DNA of 64,000 nt from positions 1 to 64,000 of the IMG/VR virus record IMGVR_UViG_3300032007_000058; one strand, 5' to 3'. Shown here piece by piece: positions 12,389 to 31,456 of this stretch. Position 1 is the first letter of the stretch; each line of letters starts with the position of its first letter. A model generated the notes under the pieces. The model searched no databases. It saw nothing but the letters and a program-made list of their open reading frames with translations, and was not told where the DNA came from. A program made the position numbers and the translations under genes. Source of the DNA: a virus. Taxonomy: Duplodnaviria; Caudoviricetes.

Positions 12389-12667
12389 ATGGACGTCGAG
12401 GATTTCGTCTCGGTGGCGGAGGCAGTGGAGATATCCGGATACGATCGGATGCACATCGCCCTCCTCTGCCGCCAGGGCAGGCTTCCCGGCGCGCGAAAGA
12501 TGGGGAGCCAGTGGATCATCCCGCGCAAGGCGCTCCAAGAGTACATGCCCGCGCCGCCCGGTCCCAGGCCGGGCTCGAAGCGGGTGAAGGAGGATCCCCT
12601 GGAGGCGGAGCTGAAGGAGGCCATCGCCAGGGGGAAAGCGAGAAAAGAGAGAGGCGACGGGGGATAG
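12389..12667 (+). CDS. Excisionase-type HTH (HTH_17) DNA-binding protein
   Basis: FVSVAEAVEISGY...LCRQGRLPGARKMGSQWIIP. Confidence 0.85.
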   Translation: MDVEDFVSVAEAVEISGYDRMHIALLCRQGRLPGARKMGSQWIIPRKALQEYMPAPPGPRPGSKRVKEDPLEAELKEAIARGKARKERGDGG

Positions 12668-12686
12668 CCCCCGCCGCCTCTTTTTT
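12651..12686 (+). terminator. Probable Rho-independent terminator
   Basis: GAGGCGACGGGGG/CCCCCGCCGCCTC imperfect stem plus T6. Confidence 0.65.
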
Positions 12687-12771
12687 GCGCCCTTGCGCCC
12701 CTCCACACCGGGCCCCCAAAAATATAATAAGATCATACTGCGAGGATACCAATAAGAAACGGAGGGTCGGT

Positions 12772-13500
12772 ATGAGTTTCACGAAGATGCTCTGCGAGGC
12801 GCTGGACATCCCGAGGCCGGAGGAGAAGCTGAAGCCCATCGAGCATGGCGGGCGATGCGGGATGTGCGGCGGGGAAGAGGGGCCGTTCTATCGCGGCCAG
12901 GACCTATGCAGCAATAGCAACGCCGTCTTCCTAGAGGTCTTCCACGGCGCGGACTGCCCTGTGTGCGTTTATTGCGCCTCGCTGTTCAAGGCGCAAAATC
13001 CCAAGCTCTGCAATACGGGGAGCAAGGCTATGTGCGTCATCGACGGGGTAGGGGGGCTCCCTGTCATCGCCAGGGACAGCGCGGAGAAGTTCGATAGGCC
13101 CTGCTGGACGGACCTAGTTAAGGCGGTGAGGATCGGTGCCCCCTGCGTAATAATCCTCTCCACCAATACAAAGAAACGCGTCTGGCCGATAGCGAAAAGC
13201 GGCTTCATCGGCGAGAACACGCCAGTGACGCTGAGCGACAACGAGCTGGACCTTAACACGACCATCTATATCGACTGGGGCGAGATGCTTAAGGACCTTG
13301 CGTATGTCGAAAGCCTAATGACGGCGGGGCTGGCGAAGGGGATGCTGTTTAGCTCCCTGCTGAAGGGCTTGCCGCCCGAGGGTTGGACGGCGGAAGATAT
13401 TATCGAGGCCGAGATGAAGATGTCCATCATACGCACGAAGAAGCACGCCCCATTCGTTCAACTTATCGCACAGAAAGCGAAGGAGGAAGCGCTATCATGA
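12772..13500 (+). CDS. csf1: Type IV CRISPR-associated Csf1 (Cas8-like, Zn-finger)
   Basis: CGMC...CVYC zinc motif, P...ILSTNTKKRVW motif, position directly before csf2/csf3-like RAMPs. Confidence 0.72.
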   Translation: MSFTKMLCEALDIPRPEEKLKPIEHGGRCGMCGGEEGPFYRGQDLCSNSNAVFLEVFHGADCPVCVYCASLFKAQNPKLCNTGSKAMCVIDGVGGLPVIARDSAEKFDRPCWTDLVKAVRIGAPCVIILSTNTKKRVWPIAKSGFIGENTPVTLSDNELDLNTTIYIDWGEMLKDLAYVESLMTAGLAKGMLFSSLLKGLPPEGWTAEDIIEAEMKMSIIRTKKHAPFVQLIAQKAKEEALS

Positions 13501-14930
13501 GATTTGAGGCGAAGCCGAACGTCATCGAGATGATCCTGACCGCCCAGAGCCCCATCATCCACGGGGACCCCGCTGTGACGCGGGACACGAATATCACCAC
13601 GTTCAACCGCCAGAAGCAGATCCTTCCGCTTGCGCCTGTATTCTCCGGGAACGGGGACGATGAGCGGCTACTGAAGGCTATCGCTGAGGCCCACCCCGTC
13701 ACGCCGGGGCTGAAAAAGCTATTCTCCCAGTCCTCGACGGCGGAAGTAGTCTCCGTGATCCTCATCCGGCTCTTTATCGAGATCTACAGCGGGAAGGGGC
13801 TCTTCGTCGATGCGGACCGGTACTCCATGCTGGAAGGGCGCGTGAAGGCCGTATCTATGAAGGCGGGCTCGCTCTCTACGTTCTGGGGCGGGCTCCTGGA
13901 CGCGATGGACGTAGACATCCAGCCGGGGGCCTACGATGCGATGCTGGCCGATATCTTCTCCCTGTCTCGAAAGCTCCAAGCCCTGGCGCTATCTATCTTG
14001 GTCGAGATCGGGGCCGTAGCGATCTTCAAGGCCCGCCTCTGGAATAACGCGCTACGGGACGCCAGGCGTGACGAGGAGCTTAAAGAGGGCGGTGCGAGCG
14101 AGGGATTGACCGAGACGCTGGACCTCTTGTCTATGCTGGATGATCCGGCGGATATCCAGCGCAAGGAAGCCGAGAGCTCTGTGGTCGAGGTCCCGACGGT
14201 CTCCCCCAACACCATCCGCAATCGTGTCATCCGCACGCCGGGATGGGAACACCTTTGCGCGGCGCTAGGGATCGACGCGATGCATCCGGGCGATGGGGAC
14301 CTGCCCATCGGGGTGGAGGCACTGTTCGTGAATGGCGGGAACATCGAGAGCGGCGGGAAGCAGCCGAACGCGCCTGAGGCTATGGCGAACGCCATCCGGC
14401 GGAAGTATCCGCTCGTGGACCTGCTGGGCGGGGTGATAAACTCCGTCATCCTGGGGCGCTCCTGCCTTTCGGTGAATTCGTGGCTGGTATGCAGGGAGAA
14501 TGCTTCCATCCTGGAACATACCAGCGCGGCGGGGCGAAGCAACCTCCGTATCAGCTCCTTCCAGATGGTGGACAGCGAGATGAAGATCAGGACGAAGACA
14601 TCGCGCGGCGTGGGGCAGTCCATGGCGAACGCGGAATCCCTGGCGATCGGGTCGGAGATCTTCGTGCGCCTGACACTGGCCCCGTTCACCCAGGATATCA
14701 CGAAGGGGGCGCTATTCGCGGCGCTGAGGACCTTCCAGGCCATGCCTCACGTCGGGGGGCATTCCAGCACTGGCGGCGGGCTGATGGATATGGATCTGAC
14801 GCGGGGGATGGAGGGAGAGGACGCCCTGCTCGCCCTTTATGAGGACTATCTGGAGGAGCATAAGGAGGAGCTGCGGCAGGGGCTCGTGACGGGCACCCTA
14901 GCGATCGGGGATAAGGCGCTGTGCGTGTGA
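13497..14930 (+). CDS. csf2: Type IV Cas7-like RAMP Csf2 with ~185 aa helical insertion
   Basis: LTAQSPIIHG, FNRQK, VPTVSPNTIRN, LFVNGGNI, YPLVDLLGG, E.LAIG and C-terminal Gly loop VGGHSSTGGG. Confidence 0.85.
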   Translation: MRFEAKPNVIEMILTAQSPIIHGDPAVTRDTNITTFNRQKQILPLAPVFSGNGDDERLLKAIAEAHPVTPGLKKLFSQSSTAEVVSVILIRLFIEIYSGKGLFVDADRYSMLEGRVKAVSMKAGSLSTFWGGLLDAMDVDIQPGAYDAMLADIFSLSRKLQALALSILVEIGAVAIFKARLWNNALRDARRDEELKEGGASEGLTETLDLLSMLDDPADIQRKEAESSVVEVPTVSPNTIRNRVIRTPGWEHLCAALGIDAMHPGDGDLPIGVEALFVNGGNIESGGKQPNAPEAMANAIRRKYPLVDLLGGVINSVILGRSCLSVNSWLVCRENASILEHTSAAGRSNLRISSFQMVDSEMKIRTKTSRGVGQSMANAESLAIGSEIFVRLTLAPFTQDITKGALFAALRTFQAMPHVGGHSSTGGGLMDMDLTRGMEGEDALLALYEDYLEEHKEELRQGLVTGTLAIGDKALCV

Positions 14931-14940
14931 GGTGAGGGGA

Positions 14941-15672
14941 ATGTATACTCCCGACCTGCTGAAGCCTTATGAGGAGAGATATCGGGGCATCGTTCCTCAG
15001 GGGATGAAGGTAGAGGCTGTCTTGGAGGACCGCTTCATCGCTACCGAGCCGGTGACGCTAGATGGGCTCCTGGCCTGGGCCGTGGTCCAGGAGGCGCAGA
15101 ATGAGGCCGGGGAGAGGATACCCTTTCAGGAGAGGGAGGATATCGCCTTCATGCCCCTGCCCCTCAAGATACTGTGGGCGGATGAGGCGGGCGGCCCGCT
15201 ATGGTGTGCGTCGTTCTTCCTCCCCGACGAGGTGGACTGTGACGTGGAATATATGCACAAGCGAGCGCCGGACGGGCATAGGACGAAGAGCAAGCATCCC
15301 GAGTCCTTCGGCGTGAAGGGCGTGACGGGGCGATGGGCGGAACGTCGGACGCCGTTCCCCGTCACTCTTGCCCGAAAGCTGGAAGCATGGTGCCTGGGGG
15401 ACGTCGCCGAGGTCCGGCGGCTCCTCCAGTACGTCACGCACGTAGGGAAGAAGACGGCGGCGGGGTTCGGTATCGTGCGGGAGTGGATCGTCGAGCCCGC
15501 CGATATCCAGGAACGGGACTGCCTCATCCGGGACGGGAAGCTGGTACGGAACGTCCCTGCGGGATATGGCGGCATCGAGACCGAGGCTCCAACAGAGCTG
15601 CTGGGCTGGGCCCCTCCGTATTGGGACCCGGCGTTCTATGGGGCTGGCTTCCGCTTCGGGGCGCGGATATGA
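14941..15672 (+). CDS. csf3: Type IV Cas5-like RAMP Csf3
   Basis: VTLDGLLAWA, LPL...WCAS, GDVAEVRRLL..VTHVGKKTAAGFGIVREWIVE. Confidence 0.88.
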   Translation: MYTPDLLKPYEERYRGIVPQGMKVEAVLEDRFIATEPVTLDGLLAWAVVQEAQNEAGERIPFQEREDIAFMPLPLKILWADEAGGPLWCASFFLPDEVDCDVEYMHKRAPDGHRTKSKHPESFGVKGVTGRWAERRTPFPVTLARKLEAWCLGDVAEVRRLLQYVTHVGKKTAAGFGIVREWIVEPADIQERDCLIRDGKLVRNVPAGYGGIETEAPTELLGWAPPYWDPAFYGAGFRFGARI

Positions 15673-15721
15673 GAGCGTTACAAAACTGCGCCATGGTACA
15701 AAAAAATAACATACATGCGGG

Positions 15722-16447
15722 GTGGTGATGGATATGATCGTGACAGGGAGCGCCCTACGCGATACGGAGACGAAGGCGAAGATCGCGGCAGAAGCGGCCT
15801 GTCTCCTACGGCCATCTGCCCCGGTCAGTCCCCTGGTCTGGGAGATCGGGGATACAGGGGCCTCAAAGGATGAGCCAAGGCATGTGGGCGTATTGCCGCC
15901 GGAGCGCCACGAGGGGGCGGCGCAGATGCTCCGGCAGATGGGATTCGTCTGGACCGTCTCTATATGGGCGAAGAAGTGTACGGATGAAACGGTGGACGAC
16001 CTGATCGTCGAGGTGGCTGTGGGTCTTTTGGCGCTGGGGCTGGTTGTGCGCGTCCCCCGCCCTGAGCTCGTCGAGCGTGTCGTGTCCGGGGACTACGAGC
16101 CCGTCTGTATGCGGCACGTGAAGGTCTTGTCTGGGGGACGAAGGTTTATCTTGACTTGGCCCAGTGAGAAAGATAACGGCCTCTACGACGCGCTTAAGCG
16201 CGTGCCCGGCGCGAGATGGGACCGGGCGCTTCGGGGCGTGACCTTACCGAAGGAGATGTATAACGAGATGCTGGACTTCGCCGAGGCTAACGGATTCCAG
16301 ATCTCGGAGGAGGCGCAGCGCTTGGCCGCCGAAGCGGAGGCCGTGTATAAGGCTACCGTCATCGTGGACGTGCAGCCCCGCGAGCTTGAGCCACCGGCCA
16401 GGCGGGGGATAGGAGAGATCGATGCGGAGCTTCGCGACGACGACTGA
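15722..16447 (+). CDS. Hypothetical protein with C-terminal HARP-like domain
   Basis: LYDALKRVPGARWD...VTLP...MLDFAEANGF; overlaps the SNF2 gene start. Confidence 0.55.
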   Translation: MVMDMIVTGSALRDTETKAKIAAEAACLLRPSAPVSPLVWEIGDTGASKDEPRHVGVLPPERHEGAAQMLRQMGFVWTVSIWAKKCTDETVDDLIVEVAVGLLALGLVVRVPRPELVERVVSGDYEPVCMRHVKVLSGGRRFILTWPSEKDNGLYDALKRVPGARWDRALRGVTLPKEMYNEMLDFAEANGFQISEEAQRLAAEAEAVYKATVIVDVQPRELEPPARRGIGEIDAELRDDD

Positions 16448-17882
16448 ATTGCTCCCGCATCAGGTGGAGGCGGTGGCGAAGCTCCTTCCATCGCGGGTCG
16501 GAGCGCTCTTTATGGAGATGGGGACGGGGAAGAGCAGGACTGCTATAGAGCTGGTCCGCCTGCGGGCGCGAAAGGTGGACCGGGTGCTCTGGTTCTGCCC
16601 CGTGTCTTTGAAGGAGACCGTAAGGCACGAAATCTTAAAACATACGGATTGTGCCCCGGAGGATGTCTGCGTTTTTGGGGATAAGACGGACGAGCGTACC
16701 GTGCCGAAGGGCCCCCTCTGGTACGTCATCGGGCTGGAAAGCGTGTCGCAGAGCAGGCGGGTGGCCTTGACGGCGGCGCGGCTGGCGACGAAAGATTCTT
16801 TCGCCATCGTGGACGAATCCAGCTATATCAAAGGGCATGAAGCACTGCGCACGCGGCGGCTCATCGTCTTCTGCGAGAAATGCCGCTATCGCATGATCTT
16901 GACGGGGACGCCCATGACACAGGGAGTACCTGACCTGTTCAGCCAGATGTATTTTCTCTCGCCAAAGATCCTTGGCTATCGGTCGTGGTATACCTTCGAG
17001 GCCAATCACCTGGAGTACGACAAGCGCCGAAAGGGGCTGCTCATCCGGGCGCATGACACGCAGGGATTAGCGGAGAAGATGCAGCCCTACGTCTTTCAGG
17101 TCACGAAGGGCGAATGTCTATCATTACCGGAGAAGCTATACGACCGCTATTATTTTGAGTTGACTCCTGAGCAGGAAAGGGCCTATGCCCAGGCAAAGAG
17201 CGATTTCGCGGACGCTCTGGCTGACGAAGGCGGCGATAGCTTTAGCTCCCTCCCGTTCTTTTATCTTTTTACGTCGTTGCAGTCCATCGTGTGCGGCTTC
17301 TGGCGCTATCGCCCCGAATGGTGGCGCAGGGACAAGGAATGGCCGATGCAGGTGGAGACCTTACCACACCGACGTATCGAGTGCATGATGGACGTGATCG
17401 GACGTATCCCCTCCAGCGAAAAGGTCATCATCTGGGCGAAGTACCGGCATTGCGTAGAGGAGATCGTAAAGAGCCTGAATACCGCATTTGGAGCGGATGC
17501 GGTGGCGCAGTTCCACGGCGGGATCCTGAGGCGGGGACGGGAGGCGGAGCTAGAGAAGTTTCGCACGTCGGCGCGGTTCCTCGTAGCGACGCAGTCCTGC
17601 GGCGGGCATGGGCTGACCTTGAACGAGGCTTCATATGTGATCTTCTATGCGGATGGATTTAAGTATTCCGAACGCCTCCAGGCGGAAGACCGCTGTCACC
17701 GTATCGGGCAGAGCCGCCCCGTCACCTATATCACGCTCTCCAGCAATGCGGGCATCGAGAACAGGATAGCTCAGGCCATCGCGAACAAGTCCGACGTCCT
17801 GCGGGACTTTAAGGCAGAGATCGATAAGGTCAAGGAGGAGGGGATAAGGGACCGGGCGAGAAAGATGGTGATGGAGCTATGA
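16422..17882 (+). CDS. SNF2/SWI2-family helicase
   Basis: LLPHQ, MEMGTGKS (Walker A), IVDESS (DExx), LTGTP, GGHGLTL, QAEDRCHRIGQ. Confidence 0.93.
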   Translation: MRSFATTTELLPHQVEAVAKLLPSRVGALFMEMGTGKSRTAIELVRLRARKVDRVLWFCPVSLKETVRHEILKHTDCAPEDVCVFGDKTDERTVPKGPLWYVIGLESVSQSRRVALTAARLATKDSFAIVDESSYIKGHEALRTRRLIVFCEKCRYRMILTGTPMTQGVPDLFSQMYFLSPKILGYRSWYTFEANHLEYDKRRKGLLIRAHDTQGLAEKMQPYVFQVTKGECLSLPEKLYDRYYFELTPEQERAYAQAKSDFADALADEGGDSFSSLPFFYLFTSLQSIVCGFWRYRPEWWRRDKEWPMQVETLPHRRIECMMDVIGRIPSSEKVIIWAKYRHCVEEIVKSLNTAFGADAVAQFHGGILRRGREAELEKFRTSARFLVATQSCGGHGLTLNEASYVIFYADGFKYSERLQAEDRCHRIGQSRPVTYITLSSNAGIENRIAQAIANKSDVLRDFKAEIDKVKEEGIRDRARKMVMEL

Positions 17883-19042
17883 GCGTCAAGAAGTACCTGA
17901 ACATCGACGTCTACGAGGCATTCCAGCGGCGGATGGACTTCATCTTTTCGGAGTTCGAGAATGTGACTATCTCTTTCAGCGGGGGCAAGGATTCTGGGCT
18001 GCTCCTTCACCTTGTGATGGATTTCGTGCGGACACATGGGATCACGAGGCGCGTAGGGCTATTCCATCAGGACATGGAGGCGCAGTATCAGTGTACGACG
18101 GATTTTGTCACGGACATGTTCGAGATGTACGCCGATAGTATGGAGCCTTATTGGTGGTGTATCCCCATAGCGTCGCGAACGGCTGTAGGGCAATATGAGA
18201 TGTTCTGGTATCCATGGGACGAGACCAAGCCTGAAGCGTGGATTCGTCCCCGCCCAGATCATCCTTATATTTATACGCTAGAGAACAACCCTATGGGGAG
18301 CTTCTATCGTTATCGAATGGAATATAAAGCCCATATGAAAGCGTTCACGCGCTGGTATTGTCATGCGCATGGAGGGGGACGGACAATAGCGCTCATGGGG
18401 ATGAGAGCAGACGAATCTTTGCGCCGATATCAGAGCATCGTGAACAAGCGTTCCGACTATAAGGGTAAAAAATGGATCACGCAAGAGCATGAGAACAGTT
18501 ATAGCTCATCGCCGCTCTATGACTGGACGACAGAAGATATCTGGCACGCCCATGCAGTGAAGGGATACACATATAATCGCGTCTACGACCTGTTTTATTT
18601 AGCTGGCTTGACTATCCATGATATGCGGGTAGCCAGTCCGTTCCACGAAGCTGCTACAGCGAGCCTTCATCTTTACAAGGTGCTAGAGCCTGAAACATGG
18701 ACGAAACTGCTTTGCCGCGTTTCAGGAGCAAATTTTGCAGCCCTCTATGGGAAGAGCTATGCGATGGGGTATCGCGGGCTCTCCTTACCCGAAGGATATA
18801 CGTGGGAGTCCTACGTCGCTTTTCTGTTAGCCTCCTTGCCGGAATATATGCGCAAGAATTATATTGAGCGTTTTGCGAAACTCGATATGGATGAGCCGCC
18901 ATGGCGCGAGATGGCTATCTGTATCCTGAAGAACGATCATCTTTGCCGTAATCTCAACGGCGCTAAGAAAAGAGCAGAGGCGCGCGTAAAACAGAAGGCA
19001 GAATGGCGAGAAGGTATATTCTCAAAATACGCTGACCTTTAA
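17879..19042 (+). CDS. ibrA: PAPS-reductase-like / DUF3440 protein (IbrA family)
   Basis: PP-loop SFSGGKDSG, MGMRADES, PLYDWTTEDIW, MRVASPF, RVSGANF, CILKND. Confidence 0.88.
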   Translation: MSVKKYLNIDVYEAFQRRMDFIFSEFENVTISFSGGKDSGLLLHLVMDFVRTHGITRRVGLFHQDMEAQYQCTTDFVTDMFEMYADSMEPYWWCIPIASRTAVGQYEMFWYPWDETKPEAWIRPRPDHPYIYTLENNPMGSFYRYRMEYKAHMKAFTRWYCHAHGGGRTIALMGMRADESLRRYQSIVNKRSDYKGKKWITQEHENSYSSSPLYDWTTEDIWHAHAVKGYTYNRVYDLFYLAGLTIHDMRVASPFHEAATASLHLYKVLEPETWTKLLCRVSGANFAALYGKSYAMGYRGLSLPEGYTWESYVAFLLASLPEYMRKNYIERFAKLDMDEPPWREMAICILKNDHLCRNLNGAKKRAEARVKQKAEWREGIFSKYADL

Positions 19043-19054
19043 GGAGATGATGTC

Positions 19055-19468
19055 ATGGATATCGTGATATACGAGAAGCGGTCACCTGAATTTTGGAGCT
19101 TGATGGGGCCGTTCTTCGCATCGCGGAAAGTCCGGCGCGATATATCCTCGATGTACGATGATGAGCGGTATGTTTGGATATTGGCTGTTGAAGATGGAAA
19201 GGTGTTAGGGTTCGTTGCGGTCCGCCCTTCAAGATCTAGCGCTCTATTATCGAGCCTTTACGTCAGAGAAGATAGTAGAGGAAAGGGGATTGCTCGTGCG
19301 TTGGTCTCTGCACATTTGGCATATTGCAGGGAACATAAGCTCTGGAAGGTATGCGTCACGGCTGCCCCATCATCGCGTGCGATCATGGAGAAGCATGGAT
19401 TTAGGGAGACGGGGGTACGAGGCAATAGCACGACGATGGAGGTCCATTTAGATGTCTACGGGCGCTGA
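19055..19468 (+). CDS. GNAT-family acetyltransferase
   Basis: LSSLYVREDSRGKGIARALV acetyl-CoA motif A; EKHGF. Confidence 0.85.
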   Translation: MDIVIYEKRSPEFWSLMGPFFASRKVRRDISSMYDDERYVWILAVEDGKVLGFVAVRPSRSSALLSSLYVREDSRGKGIARALVSAHLAYCREHKLWKVCVTAAPSSRAIMEKHGFRETGVRGNSTTMEVHLDVYGR

Positions 19469-20087
19469 TATTATGGATATGGCACAGGCCTTCTGCGCCC
19501 AGATAGAAGCCCTCCCCATGAAGGAGAAGATAGAAGGGCTTAACCTCGTCCGCAAGATGCTCCACCAGGTGAGCCCCTTCCGGGACGAGCCTGTGGACTG
19601 CGTGCTCTGGGTATCGAGCGAGGCTGTGGAGGGCAACGAGTACAACCCAAATTCCGTTGCGCCGCCGGAGATGCGGCTCCTGGAACTCTCTATCCAGGAG
19701 GACGGGTATACCCAGCCCGTGGTGACGAATCCCGAAGGGGAAAGCCTCTGGCGCGTAGTGGACGGCTTCCACAGGACGCGCGTCGCGAAGGAGAGCGCCG
19801 CCGTGCGGGAGCGTATCTTCGGTTATATCCCCGTCGTGGAGATACGGGCGGGGCGCGACGGGAAGCGGGACCGGATGGCCGCCACCATCCGCCACAACCG
19901 GGCGCGGGGCGTCCACGGCGTGGAGCGGATGTCGGACATCGTGGCGGAGCTCCATGGCCTGGGCTGGACGGACGCGGAGATCGCGAAGGAGCTGGGCATG
20001 GACGCGGATGAGGTCCTGCGCCTGAAACAGATCACCGGCCTGGCGGAGCTCTTTAGATCGGGCGGGTATTCGCGGGCGTGGGAATAA
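19452..20087 (+). CDS. ibrB: ParB/Srx-like protein (IbrB family)
   Basis: NEYNPNSVAPPEM, GYTQPVV, VVDGFHR, ATIRHNRARG, LGMDADEVLRLKQITGLAELF. Confidence 0.9.
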   Translation: MSTGADIMDMAQAFCAQIEALPMKEKIEGLNLVRKMLHQVSPFRDEPVDCVLWVSSEAVEGNEYNPNSVAPPEMRLLELSIQEDGYTQPVVTNPEGESLWRVVDGFHRTRVAKESAAVRERIFGYIPVVEIRAGRDGKRDRMAATIRHNRARGVHGVERMSDIVAELHGLGWTDAEIAKELGMDADEVLRLKQITGLAELFRSGGYSRAWE

Positions 20088-20102
20088 GGAGATAGGATCG
20101 AC

Positions 20103-20139
20103 GGGGGATAGCTCACGAAGAGCTATCCCCCGCTTTTTT
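20103..20139 (+). terminator. Terminator ending the csf-ibr operon
   Basis: GGGGGATAGCTC-ACGAA-GAGCTATCCCCC plus T6. Confidence 0.85.
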
Positions 20140-20157: not shown

Positions 20158-20442
20158 TCACTCGTCGCTCATTCCCTCTTTCATGGGTATGACCTCAAGA
20201 GGCCGATTCTTCCTTGGCCTCCTGACTGCGGCACAAGCAACGCGGATATCGTCAAATGGGACTTTGTAAAGTTTCGCCAGGTCCTCTGCGATACCCAACG
20301 GCAATTCAGCTTGACCAAGCTCATATCGCCTGAGCGTATCCGGGGCGACCCCTAGCGCCACAGCAGCTTGCGGTCGCGTCAGCCCCGCATCCGAACGCAA
20401 GGCCCCTAAAGGAGTTCGGTCTGCATTGCTCCATCGTGGCAT
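20158..20442 (-). CDS. XRE-family HTH regulator
   Basis: LRSDAGLTRPQAAVALGVAPDTLRRYELG; RBS GGAGG. Confidence 0.85.
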   Translation of the reverse strand: MPRWSNADRTPLGALRSDAGLTRPQAAVALGVAPDTLRRYELGQAELPLGIAEDLAKLYKVPFDDIRVACAAVRRPRKNRPLEVIPMKEGMSDE

Positions 20443-20483
20443 CTTCTTCACCTCCTGGATATATTATATACTATTTTTCACGT

Positions 20484-20541
20484 CTTAAAAACAAGGCCTT
20501 AATAATAAGTATATTTACTGATGTAAGGCCTTATTTTTAAG
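20484..20541. promoter_or_regulatory. 18-bp inverted-repeat operator pair in an AT-rich divergent promoter region
   Basis: CTTAAAAACAAGGCCTTA ... TAAGGCCTTATTTTTAAG (one mismatch, 22 nt apart). Confidence 0.65.
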
Positions 20542-20743
20542 GTATCATATAACCATCGAGCGAGGGAGATACTAAGAGCCCAAGCAGAGCAGATTGAAAA
20601 AATAAGCCCAGGCCTCGGGCAGACAAAGAGGTCCCCAGAAGCAGAGCGGGAGGGAAGAGCGCGAGATCGCCAAGAGGCCCGGAGAACGCCAAGAAGCGGA
20701 CGGAGGAGCAGGCAGACCTCTCAACGGTCGGCACTCGGGGACA

Positions 20744-20800
20744 GGTCGAAACCGGCGGTGACAGAGCCGGTCCAAGGGTAAAACCCTTGCTGATGAGACC
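20744..20800 (+). ncRNA. Type II hammerhead ribozyme
   Basis: GGTC-GAAA-CCGGC(loop)GCCGG-TC^-CAAGGGT(AAA)ACCCTTG-CTGATGA-GACC: all core nucleotides and three stems present; predicted cleavage after C20772. Confidence 0.9.
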
Positions 20801-20817
20801 AAAAGGAGGAGATCAAG

Positions 20818-21090
20818 ATGTTGCAGTTCGTAGAGTTTGAGGGAATTGACCACGCCAACATCGAGCTTTTCGACATCGCGGAGGAGGCCGGATGCACCGA
20901 GGCCATGGACCTCCTGCACGACGCCCACAAGTGGGCGAAGAGCAAGGAGGAGGCCTACGAGATGGTAAGGAAGGCCTTTTACGTCCTGCGCCTGGAGCAC
21001 GAGGACGTAATGAAGGAGAAGTTCGGGAAGAAGGTGTTCCCGGAATATACGGCCCTTTGCAAGACGAGGAAGGGGAGGAAGGGGGCGTAA
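20818..21090 (+). CDS. Early hypothetical protein (90 aa)
   Basis: RBS AGGAGG immediately after the hammerhead. Confidence 0.75.
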   Translation: MLQFVEFEGIDHANIELFDIAEEAGCTEAMDLLHDAHKWAKSKEEAYEMVRKAFYVLRLEHEDVMKEKFGKKVFPEYTALCKTRKGRKGA

Positions 21091-31279: not shown

Positions 31280-31456
31280 ATGGATAAGAAAGAAAAGACG
31301 GTCCAGATGATCGTTCGTATCCCGGAGGGTATAGCGAGGGAGTTTAAGGCCTTATGCGCCCTGAAGGGGATGACGATCCAGGCCGTCTTAGCGCGCGTGA
31401 TCAAGGAGTTTATCGAGAAAGAACGGGAAGAGAAGGAGCCCGAACGACCGACCTAG
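31280..31456 (+). CDS. Ribbon-helix-helix (ParG/Arc-like) regulator (not in ORF track)
   Basis: VQMIVRIPEGIAREFKALCALKGMTIQAVLARVIKEFI. Confidence 0.75.
   Translation: MDKKEKTVQMIVRIPEGIAREFKALCALKGMTIQAVLARVIKEFIEKEREEKEPERPT

Follow-up and report, generated by a model that had tools for sequence, protein, structure and literature searches.

A complete type II hammerhead ribozyme occupies positions 20744-20800 (+ strand) of the window, the 64,000-nt stretch of viral DNA analysed here, which belongs to the 85,940-bp IMG/VR record IMGVR_UViG_3300032007_000058 (Duplodnaviria; Caudoviricetes). It stands directly before the first gene of a rightward operon that, from the arrangement of its neighbours, is the early operon of a temperate phage, and it is probably a functional self-cleaving hammerhead that processes the leader of this operon. 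The most likely role suggested by its sequence and placement is host-independent removal of the leader, which would leave an early mRNA that starts with a 5'-OH on a hairpin. The assignment draws on the architecture of the motif, on its membership in a covarying family of phage-borne ribozymes, and on the fixed position of that family just before ribosome-binding sites (RBSs).

Architecture of the Ribozyme

An earlier note on this DNA had described a type II hammerhead lying 3 nt upstream of an early-gene RBS. This description is borne out by the sequence, by the minimum free energy (MFE) fold, by a descriptor scan and by a covariance model designated R1, with the Shine-Dalgarno (SD) sequence beginning at 20804. 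[quoted passage not shown] As read from the sequence, the 5' strand of stem II, GGUC (11.4-11.1; 20744-20747), is followed by G12, A13 and A14 (20748-20750) and then by the stem III hairpin (20751-20771; -10.0 kcal/mol), in which A15.1 (20751) pairs with U16.1 (20771) and CCGGC (20752-20756) forms five G-C pairs with GCCGG (20766-20770) around a 9-nt loop. The predicted scissile bond lies between C17 (20772), the last base of the GUC triplet (20770-20772), and C1.1 (20773), a position fixed by hammerhead numbering. The stem I hairpin (20773-20789; -8.0 kcal/mol) is built from CAAGGG(U) (20773-20779) and (A)CCCUUG (20783-20789) and contains 6 bp plus a U-A closing pair, with a loop that can be given as UAAAA or AAA. 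It leads into the catalytic core strand CUGAUGA (C3-A9; 20790-20796), which is invariant in the family alignment, and into the 3' strand of stem II, GACC (10.1-10.4; 20797-20800), which begins with the G10.1-C11.1 pair (G20797-C20747).

All conserved core positions are thus present (C3, U4, G5, A6, N7, G8 and A9; G12, A13 and A14; the A15.1-U16.1 pair; and H17, which is C and not G), in a molecule with 4 bp in stem II, 6 bp in stem III and 6-7 bp in stem I. The core residues named in the earlier note (CUGAUGA, GAAA and the GUC cleavage triplet) can each be located in the sequence, and its stem counts (7 bp in stem I, 5 bp in stem III and an open stem II of GGTC/GACC) agree with both the sequence and the MFE fold. 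Directly 5' of stem II lies an unpaired A (20743, + strand) that is conserved in 58 of the 62 family members, although its column was left free in the search pattern.

Folding of positions 20735-20812 returns exactly the hammerhead three-way junction as the MFE structure, and this fold is retained in the MFE structure of the whole 316-nt leader. Within the full leader, the partition function assigns the hammerhead fold an equilibrium probability of only ~0.16, a value that counts against the proposed processing; the local fold z-score at the ribozyme site is -1.0, and the stability of the 4-bp stem II is -3.8 kcal/mol. [quoted passage not shown] In the window ribozyme, loop I (UAAAA) has no complementarity to the 3' tail AAAAGGAGG, so that the pseudoknot of the RF02276 type (at least 4 bp) is absent, which is a further point against fast cleavage. 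[quoted passage not shown] Masking of the core by the 3' tail was considered and rejected, since the best duplex between core and tail in the window has 4 bp and -2.8 kcal/mol. Some subclass members (in L019, L035, L044, L072, L080 and L113) have a CAUCAG tail right after stem II; being complementary to the core CUGAUG, this tail could form a self-masking alternative hairpin, and it is absent from the window.

The type II descriptor demanded GAAA, CUGANGA, U16.1, H17 and stems of at least 3, 4 and 4 bp. On both strands of the 85,940-bp record it matched 20744-20800 and no other site, and in 300 dinucleotide-preserving shuffles of the window it gave a single relaxed match and none at the observed stringency. 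Unique in the record and rare in shuffled sequence, the ribozyme motif is beyond chance.

A Pseudoknot-Free Subclass Missed by Rfam

The earlier note had proposed a search with Rfam type II hammerhead models as a check, and this check gave a negative result. Nothing was found at the ribozyme site by Rfam 15 at the gathering threshold over the window, by a scan of 20600-20900 (301 nt) at E<=10, or by a search of the whole 85.9-kb record with RF02276 (Hammerhead_II; gathering threshold 37 bits). The reason emerged from relatives in viral contigs. The search pattern prescribed 21 bases, copied from the window, for the core and three stem II pairs, and it imposed nothing on stems I and III. This pattern recovered at least 120 viral loci, many of them with 2-7 copies, and 145 of the 149 matches listed fold or parse as proper hammerheads. 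Two forms are represented among the listed matches. One is the form already published, with loop I paired to the 3' tail in a pseudoknot; the other is shorter, has no pseudoknot and combines a 4-bp stem II of GGUC/GACC, preceded by an A, with a stem I of 6 bp whose 5-nt loop is of the type U-N-A-N-G.

RF02276 recognises the pseudoknot form, with scores of 40-47 bits for copies in L041 and L043, whereas it calls none of 14 pseudoknot-free copies with a 4-bp stem II (0/11 in eight loci and 0/3 in L125-L127). The subclass copies that it misses (L008, L029, L030, L036, L064, L092, L094, L108 and L125-L127) score 50-79 bits with R1. Because RF02276 models the pseudoknot form and recovers none of the tested short-form copies, the silence of Rfam at the window site represents a sensitivity gap and not counter-evidence, and the negative search was overruled by this calibration as an argument against a hammerhead. 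The practical consequence is that the annotation of phage genomes passes over ribozymes without a pseudoknot and with a 4-bp stem II, which a model of the R1 kind would recover.

R1 was built from 12 ungapped short-form copies from other viral contigs. It aligns all 59 model positions with the window site at 64.6 bits (E ~1e-15), a score that is partly by construction because the training copies had been retrieved with 21 core and stem II bases from the window, and it detects no second copy in the 85.9-kb record. The window also matches the subclass in features that the retrieval pattern left free, including the pairing of stems I and III, the fourth stem II pair, A20743 and the G-C pair closing stem I, as well as the 6-bp length of stem I, the 5-nt loop I of the form U-N-A-N-x (its U and A) and an A after stem II. 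In the 62-member R1 alignment, 99.8% of the cells are paired and compensatory change is seen at 13 of the 16 pairs; the window ribozyme ranks 18th of 62 by score. Its loop I ends in A where most subclass copies have G, which tells somewhat against it, although nine other aligned members share this ending.

The stem I sequence of the window recurs identically in L094, L125, L126 and L127, where stem III differs and is fully compensated. L125 and L127, which came from a metagenome scan, are near twins of the window ribozyme: they have the same stem I, a loop UAAAG and the same A-rich spacer followed by GGAGG, and their stem III is entirely unlike that of the window yet fully paired, with unrelated flanking genes. 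Window positions 20767-20810, which comprise the 3' half of the hammerhead, the spacer and the SD, are 91% identical to L125:84-129 over 46 nt. Such sharing hints that a ribozyme and its RBS may be exchanged among phage genes as one modular unit. In L125 and L127 the hammerhead is followed ~330 nt downstream by a twister-sister ribozyme (RF02681, 40.2 bits), so that one small gene is flanked by a hammerhead and a twister-sister (L125:63-117 and 450-523; L127:2066-2120 and 1660-1733). A tRNA gene is found at L094:4463-4534 (- strand), a few kb from the subclass hammerhead with the window-identical stem I.

Placement Before Genes

The family is found on the coding strand, where it fills short intergenic gaps, and the upstream stop codon often lies 0-5 nt before stem II. 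Among the matches listed, an ORF starts no more than 30 nt downstream of 27 of the 38 short-form and 78 of the 108 pseudoknot-form copies, usually with an SD. Dense arrays occur in L044:2148-5080 (at least 12 copies) and L106:169-2847 (at least 5), with a spacing of 250-900 nt between small ORFs.

The window ribozyme is placed as is typical of its subclass: it shares the strand of the gene that it precedes, the start codon comes 10-35 nt later, and an SD lies in the gap. The SD of the first early gene, AGGAGG (20804-20809, + strand), follows the ribozyme after 3 nt, the same spacing as in the family, and the ATG of the first ORF of the rightward operon (20818-21090, + strand) follows after 17 nt. 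This ORF encodes an orphan protein of 90 aa that belongs to no Pfam or PHROG family and, in a search of 5.8 billion proteins, had no match but itself; the other genes downstream of the ribozyme are small orphans too. Searches for related loci with the 90-aa ORF and with the repressor described below, and a search for contigs encoding the ORF, returned no orthologous locus. Unlike most of the family, the window ribozyme heads its operon, with no same-strand ORF upstream and no abutting stop codon, although a minority of the hammerhead family likewise lacks an adjacent upstream ORF. Ten divergent ORFs near other hammerheads, as defined by a greedy ORF caller that is noisy in GC-rich DNA, encode no HTH domain.

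The Immunity Region and the Purine-Rich Leader

The hammerhead lies in a separate transcription unit, because a strong intrinsic terminator (20102-20132, + strand), consisting of a 13-bp stem and a T run, closes the upstream operon of Csf, SNF2, PAPS-reductase and ParB genes. Downstream of this terminator is a divergent repressor-like gene (20158-20451, - strand) with HTH_3 and HTH_31 matches (Pfam, 1.5e-10 and 1.2e-07). Candidate sigma-70-like promoters are predicted at 20436-20506, and an AT-rich divergent promoter region contains an operator-like 18-nt inverted repeat (I1; 20484-20541; 94% complementary) with two AAGGCCTT palindromes. This octamer is present six times in the window against 0.82 expected (20493-20500, 20525-20532 and 20971-20978, and also at 31346, 50050 and 60348), and its third copy (20971) sits 153 nt into the first early ORF. 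The HTH repressor probably uses these copies as its operators. Genes for a tyrosine integrase and a RecT protein are likewise present in the record, and, as read from its genes and sites, the region is laid out like the immunity region of a temperate phage together with its rightward early operon.

The putatively released leader (20560-20743, + strand; the 5' end is uncertain and the coordinate approximate) is purine-rich and U-poor, with 68.5% purine and 6.5% T, a composition that falls in the top 0.25% of equal-sized windows, and it contains many GGA motifs. It has no ORF with a canonical start and is apparently non-coding; the possibility that it is translated was rejected on this ground, the open frames being arginine- and glutamate-rich low-complexity read-through that ends inside the ribozyme. 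Within the leader there is no Rfam match (scan of 20600-20900 at E<=10), no tandem repeat and no significant fold (z = -0.06), and phage records contain no homologue of it. On the opposite strand, a terminator-like hairpin with a U run (20606-20620, - strand) lies antisense to the leader and could stop leftward antisense transcription before the repressor promoter.

Proposed Processing of the Early Leader

The ribozyme would be transcribed within the 5' leader of the rightward early operon, from a promoter and operator that adjoin the divergent repressor gene, and would fold into the three-way junction once the stem II 3' strand GACC emerges. It would then cut itself between C20772 and C20773, and the products would part, since only the 4-bp stem II holds them together. 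The leader, of ~200-250 nt, would depart carrying a 2',3'-cyclic phosphate on the nucleotide that follows the stem III hairpin. The early mRNA would open with a 5'-OH nucleotide that is already paired in stem I, and from this new end it is 31 nt to the SD and 45 nt to the AUG. We infer on this basis the transcription start, cleavage in vivo and an effect on the stability or expression of the early message. The earlier note had anticipated this outcome in its main parts. Its predicted cleavage after 20772, its 5'-OH, hairpin-started mRNA and its release of a ~200-nt purine-rich, apparently non-coding leader are all consistent with the hammerhead numbering, with the base composition and lack of a canonical-start ORF in the leader, and with membership in a covarying family.

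The likely benefit of such processing would be a uniform 5' end of the early message, made without host RNases. Pathways of 5'-end-dependent decay use a 5' phosphate and a single-stranded tail. The new end would have neither a triphosphate nor a monophosphate and no single-stranded tail, and a paired 5'-OH end of this kind should offer poor access for 5'-end-dependent decay. The message would also be uncoupled from whatever the leader does or binds. Unmasking of the RBS by cleavage is not predicted, since the partition function gives an accessibility of 0.62-0.65 for the region from SD to AUG (20804-20820) before cleavage and of 0.56 after it. An insulator that acts by freeing the RBS was accordingly discarded as a candidate, the predicted SD accessibility being alike in uncleaved and cleaved RNAs, and any benefit would come from the chemistry or structure of the new 5' end or from removal of the leader. 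With this proviso, the modelling leaves a role as insulator or stabiliser plausible. The 5'-OH product of the glmS ribozyme is degraded by RNase J1 in Bacillus, and a 5'-OH can thus mark an RNA for decay. The direction of the effect of cleavage is uncertain because such an end can have this consequence in some hosts.

Alternative Roles

An active ribozyme might for this very reason lower expression. The triphosphate and the leader would be lost and the 5'-OH exposed to an RNase J-type host exonuclease, which would curb leaky expression of early genes while the promoter is repressed, or cut the early phase short. The glmS ribozyme provides a precedent, and the site adjoins a lysogeny switch, where curbing leakage would matter. 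Damping nevertheless appears unlikely, given that the new 5' end is paired from its first nucleotide in stem I (-8.0 kcal/mol), which makes it a poor entry site for a 5' exonuclease, and that the family precedes many ordinary phage genes in arrays, a distribution that fits processing better than destruction.

It is alternatively conceivable that the ribozyme serves mainly to make the leader, a ~200-nt purine-rich functional RNA that might be a protein sponge, a regulator or a cargo of a type IV Csf complex. The hammerhead would then give the leader a defined, hairpin-protected 3' end without a terminator, and both the RNA and the mRNA would derive from one promoter. The leader is unusually long for the family, most copies of which follow a stop codon within 0-5 nt, and its extreme composition and many GGA motifs would accord with such a function; its lack of an Rfam match, of a significant fold, of repeat structure and of a homologue in phage records would not. 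All told, we regard a leader-producing role as quite unlikely.

The possible connection with Csf proteins arises from a phage-borne type IV CRISPR-Cas-like effector module at window positions 13383-15672 (more widely 12511-20087). It encodes Cas7/Csf2 (5.8e-25), with a weak Cas11-like stretch at residues 147-232, and Cas5/Csf3 (1.4e-37), followed by an SNF2 helicase, a PAPS-reductase/DUF3440 protein, a GNAT protein and a ParB-like protein. The nearest Csf3 relatives in named records are those of Rhodococcus and Mycobacterium plasmids and of Skermania phage SPI1, at 25-34% identity; a contig search placed Csf3 relatives only on contigs of at most 2.8 kb, with none among genome contigs. The 85.9-kb record contains no CRISPR array anywhere, and the Cas7/Cas5 module ends 640 nt upstream, a conjunction that favours an RNA supplied by the ribozyme. 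Against this stand the strong terminator and the divergent repressor gene, which separate the Csf operon from the ribozyme unit. Furthermore, no Csf homologue is encoded at any of the at least 120 hammerhead-bearing viral loci listed. Conversely, R1 and the descriptor detect no hammerhead within 12 kb of eight type IV loci on plasmids and a phage, seven with a nearby PAPS-reductase gene (including Mycobacterium sp. JS623 and Skermania phage SPI1) and one of type IV-A, and Rfam detects none in the six of these that were scanned. On these grounds a link between the ribozyme and the Cas module was rejected. That the hammerhead forms the 3' end of a specific functional leader is a very improbable proposition; such a leader might be loaded into the neighbouring array-less Csf (Cas7/Cas5) complex, which is type IV-B-like, and stand in for a crRNA processed by Cas6, or it might titrate a host regulator that binds GGA.

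Least credible of all is a chance match or an inactive relic without a role: the silence of the Rfam hammerhead models, a local fold z-score of only -1.0 and the lack of an orthologue that would show purifying selection at the site could be cited for it, but shuffled sequence hardly ever contains the motif, R1 recognises it with an E-value of 1e-15, every core position and the unselected features specific to the subclass are intact, the canonical SD and AUG spacing is preserved, and the Rfam miss is accounted for by the sensitivity gap of RF02276.

Relation to Known Systems

Removal of the early leader by a self-cleaving RNA, as favoured here, has several counterparts. Both this kind of ribozyme and such a placement have been published (PMC3088659). 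Bacteria and prophages frequently carry type II hammerheads, often on the flanks of single genes, and a role in the processing of long phage transcripts has been proposed for them (PMC3088659; Perreault et al., 2011). Cleavage in vivo is documented in D. vulgaris for three type II hammerheads that have phage-like genes nearby (PMC8782182). The window ribozyme resembles the published type II examples (PMC3088659; RF02276) in its core, its open-stem-II permutation, its phage setting, its location on the gene strand and its position just before an RBS. It differs from them in that its loop I, of only 5 nt, forms no pseudoknot with the 3' tail, in that its stem II has 4 bp instead of 1-3 bp, and in that it occurs once, heading an operon, instead of belonging to an intercistronic array. 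With the intercistronic arrays of uncultivated phages (L043, L044 and L106) it shares the family and the distance to SD and AUG; the arrays abut the upstream stop codon (0-5 nt), whereas the window ribozyme follows ~200 nt of non-coding leader and is the one copy in 85.9 kb.

In the lambda N leader, a long early leader that contains the protein-binding nut site is processed by a host enzyme, RNase III, which cuts it shortly before the RBS that serves the first gene. RiboJ-type insulators, engineered from a type III satellite-RNA hammerhead, combine a ribozyme and a hairpin to fix the 5' end of an mRNA whatever its promoter. The window ribozyme is related to both by analogy of working only, with no RBS unmasking predicted in its case.

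A closer parallel is the hammerhead of the haloviruses HF1 and HF2: only 13 nt separate it from the first early ORF, and the mapped 5' end of the transcript falls no more than 3 nt from the cleavage site (PMC3088659). Because this mRNA end coincides with the cleavage site, the HF1/HF2 ribozyme is a direct precedent for the arrangement in the window, where a ribozyme likewise precedes the start of the first ORF of an early polycistronic operon by a few nucleotides (17 nt). HHphage, as the HF1/HF2 ribozyme is called, has a variant core, requires very high Mg2+ and belongs to a lytic archaeal virus; the window ribozyme has a consensus core and belongs to a temperate phage that is apparently bacterial, as indicated by its sigma-70-like promoters, SD sequences and integrase. 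The operon-head position beside a lysogeny switch, the long purine-rich leader and the membership in a subclass missed by standard annotation are the points of interest of this locus, and they make it a clean test case for the role of phage hammerheads, whether in the definition and stabilisation of the 5' end, in the release of a leader or in damping.
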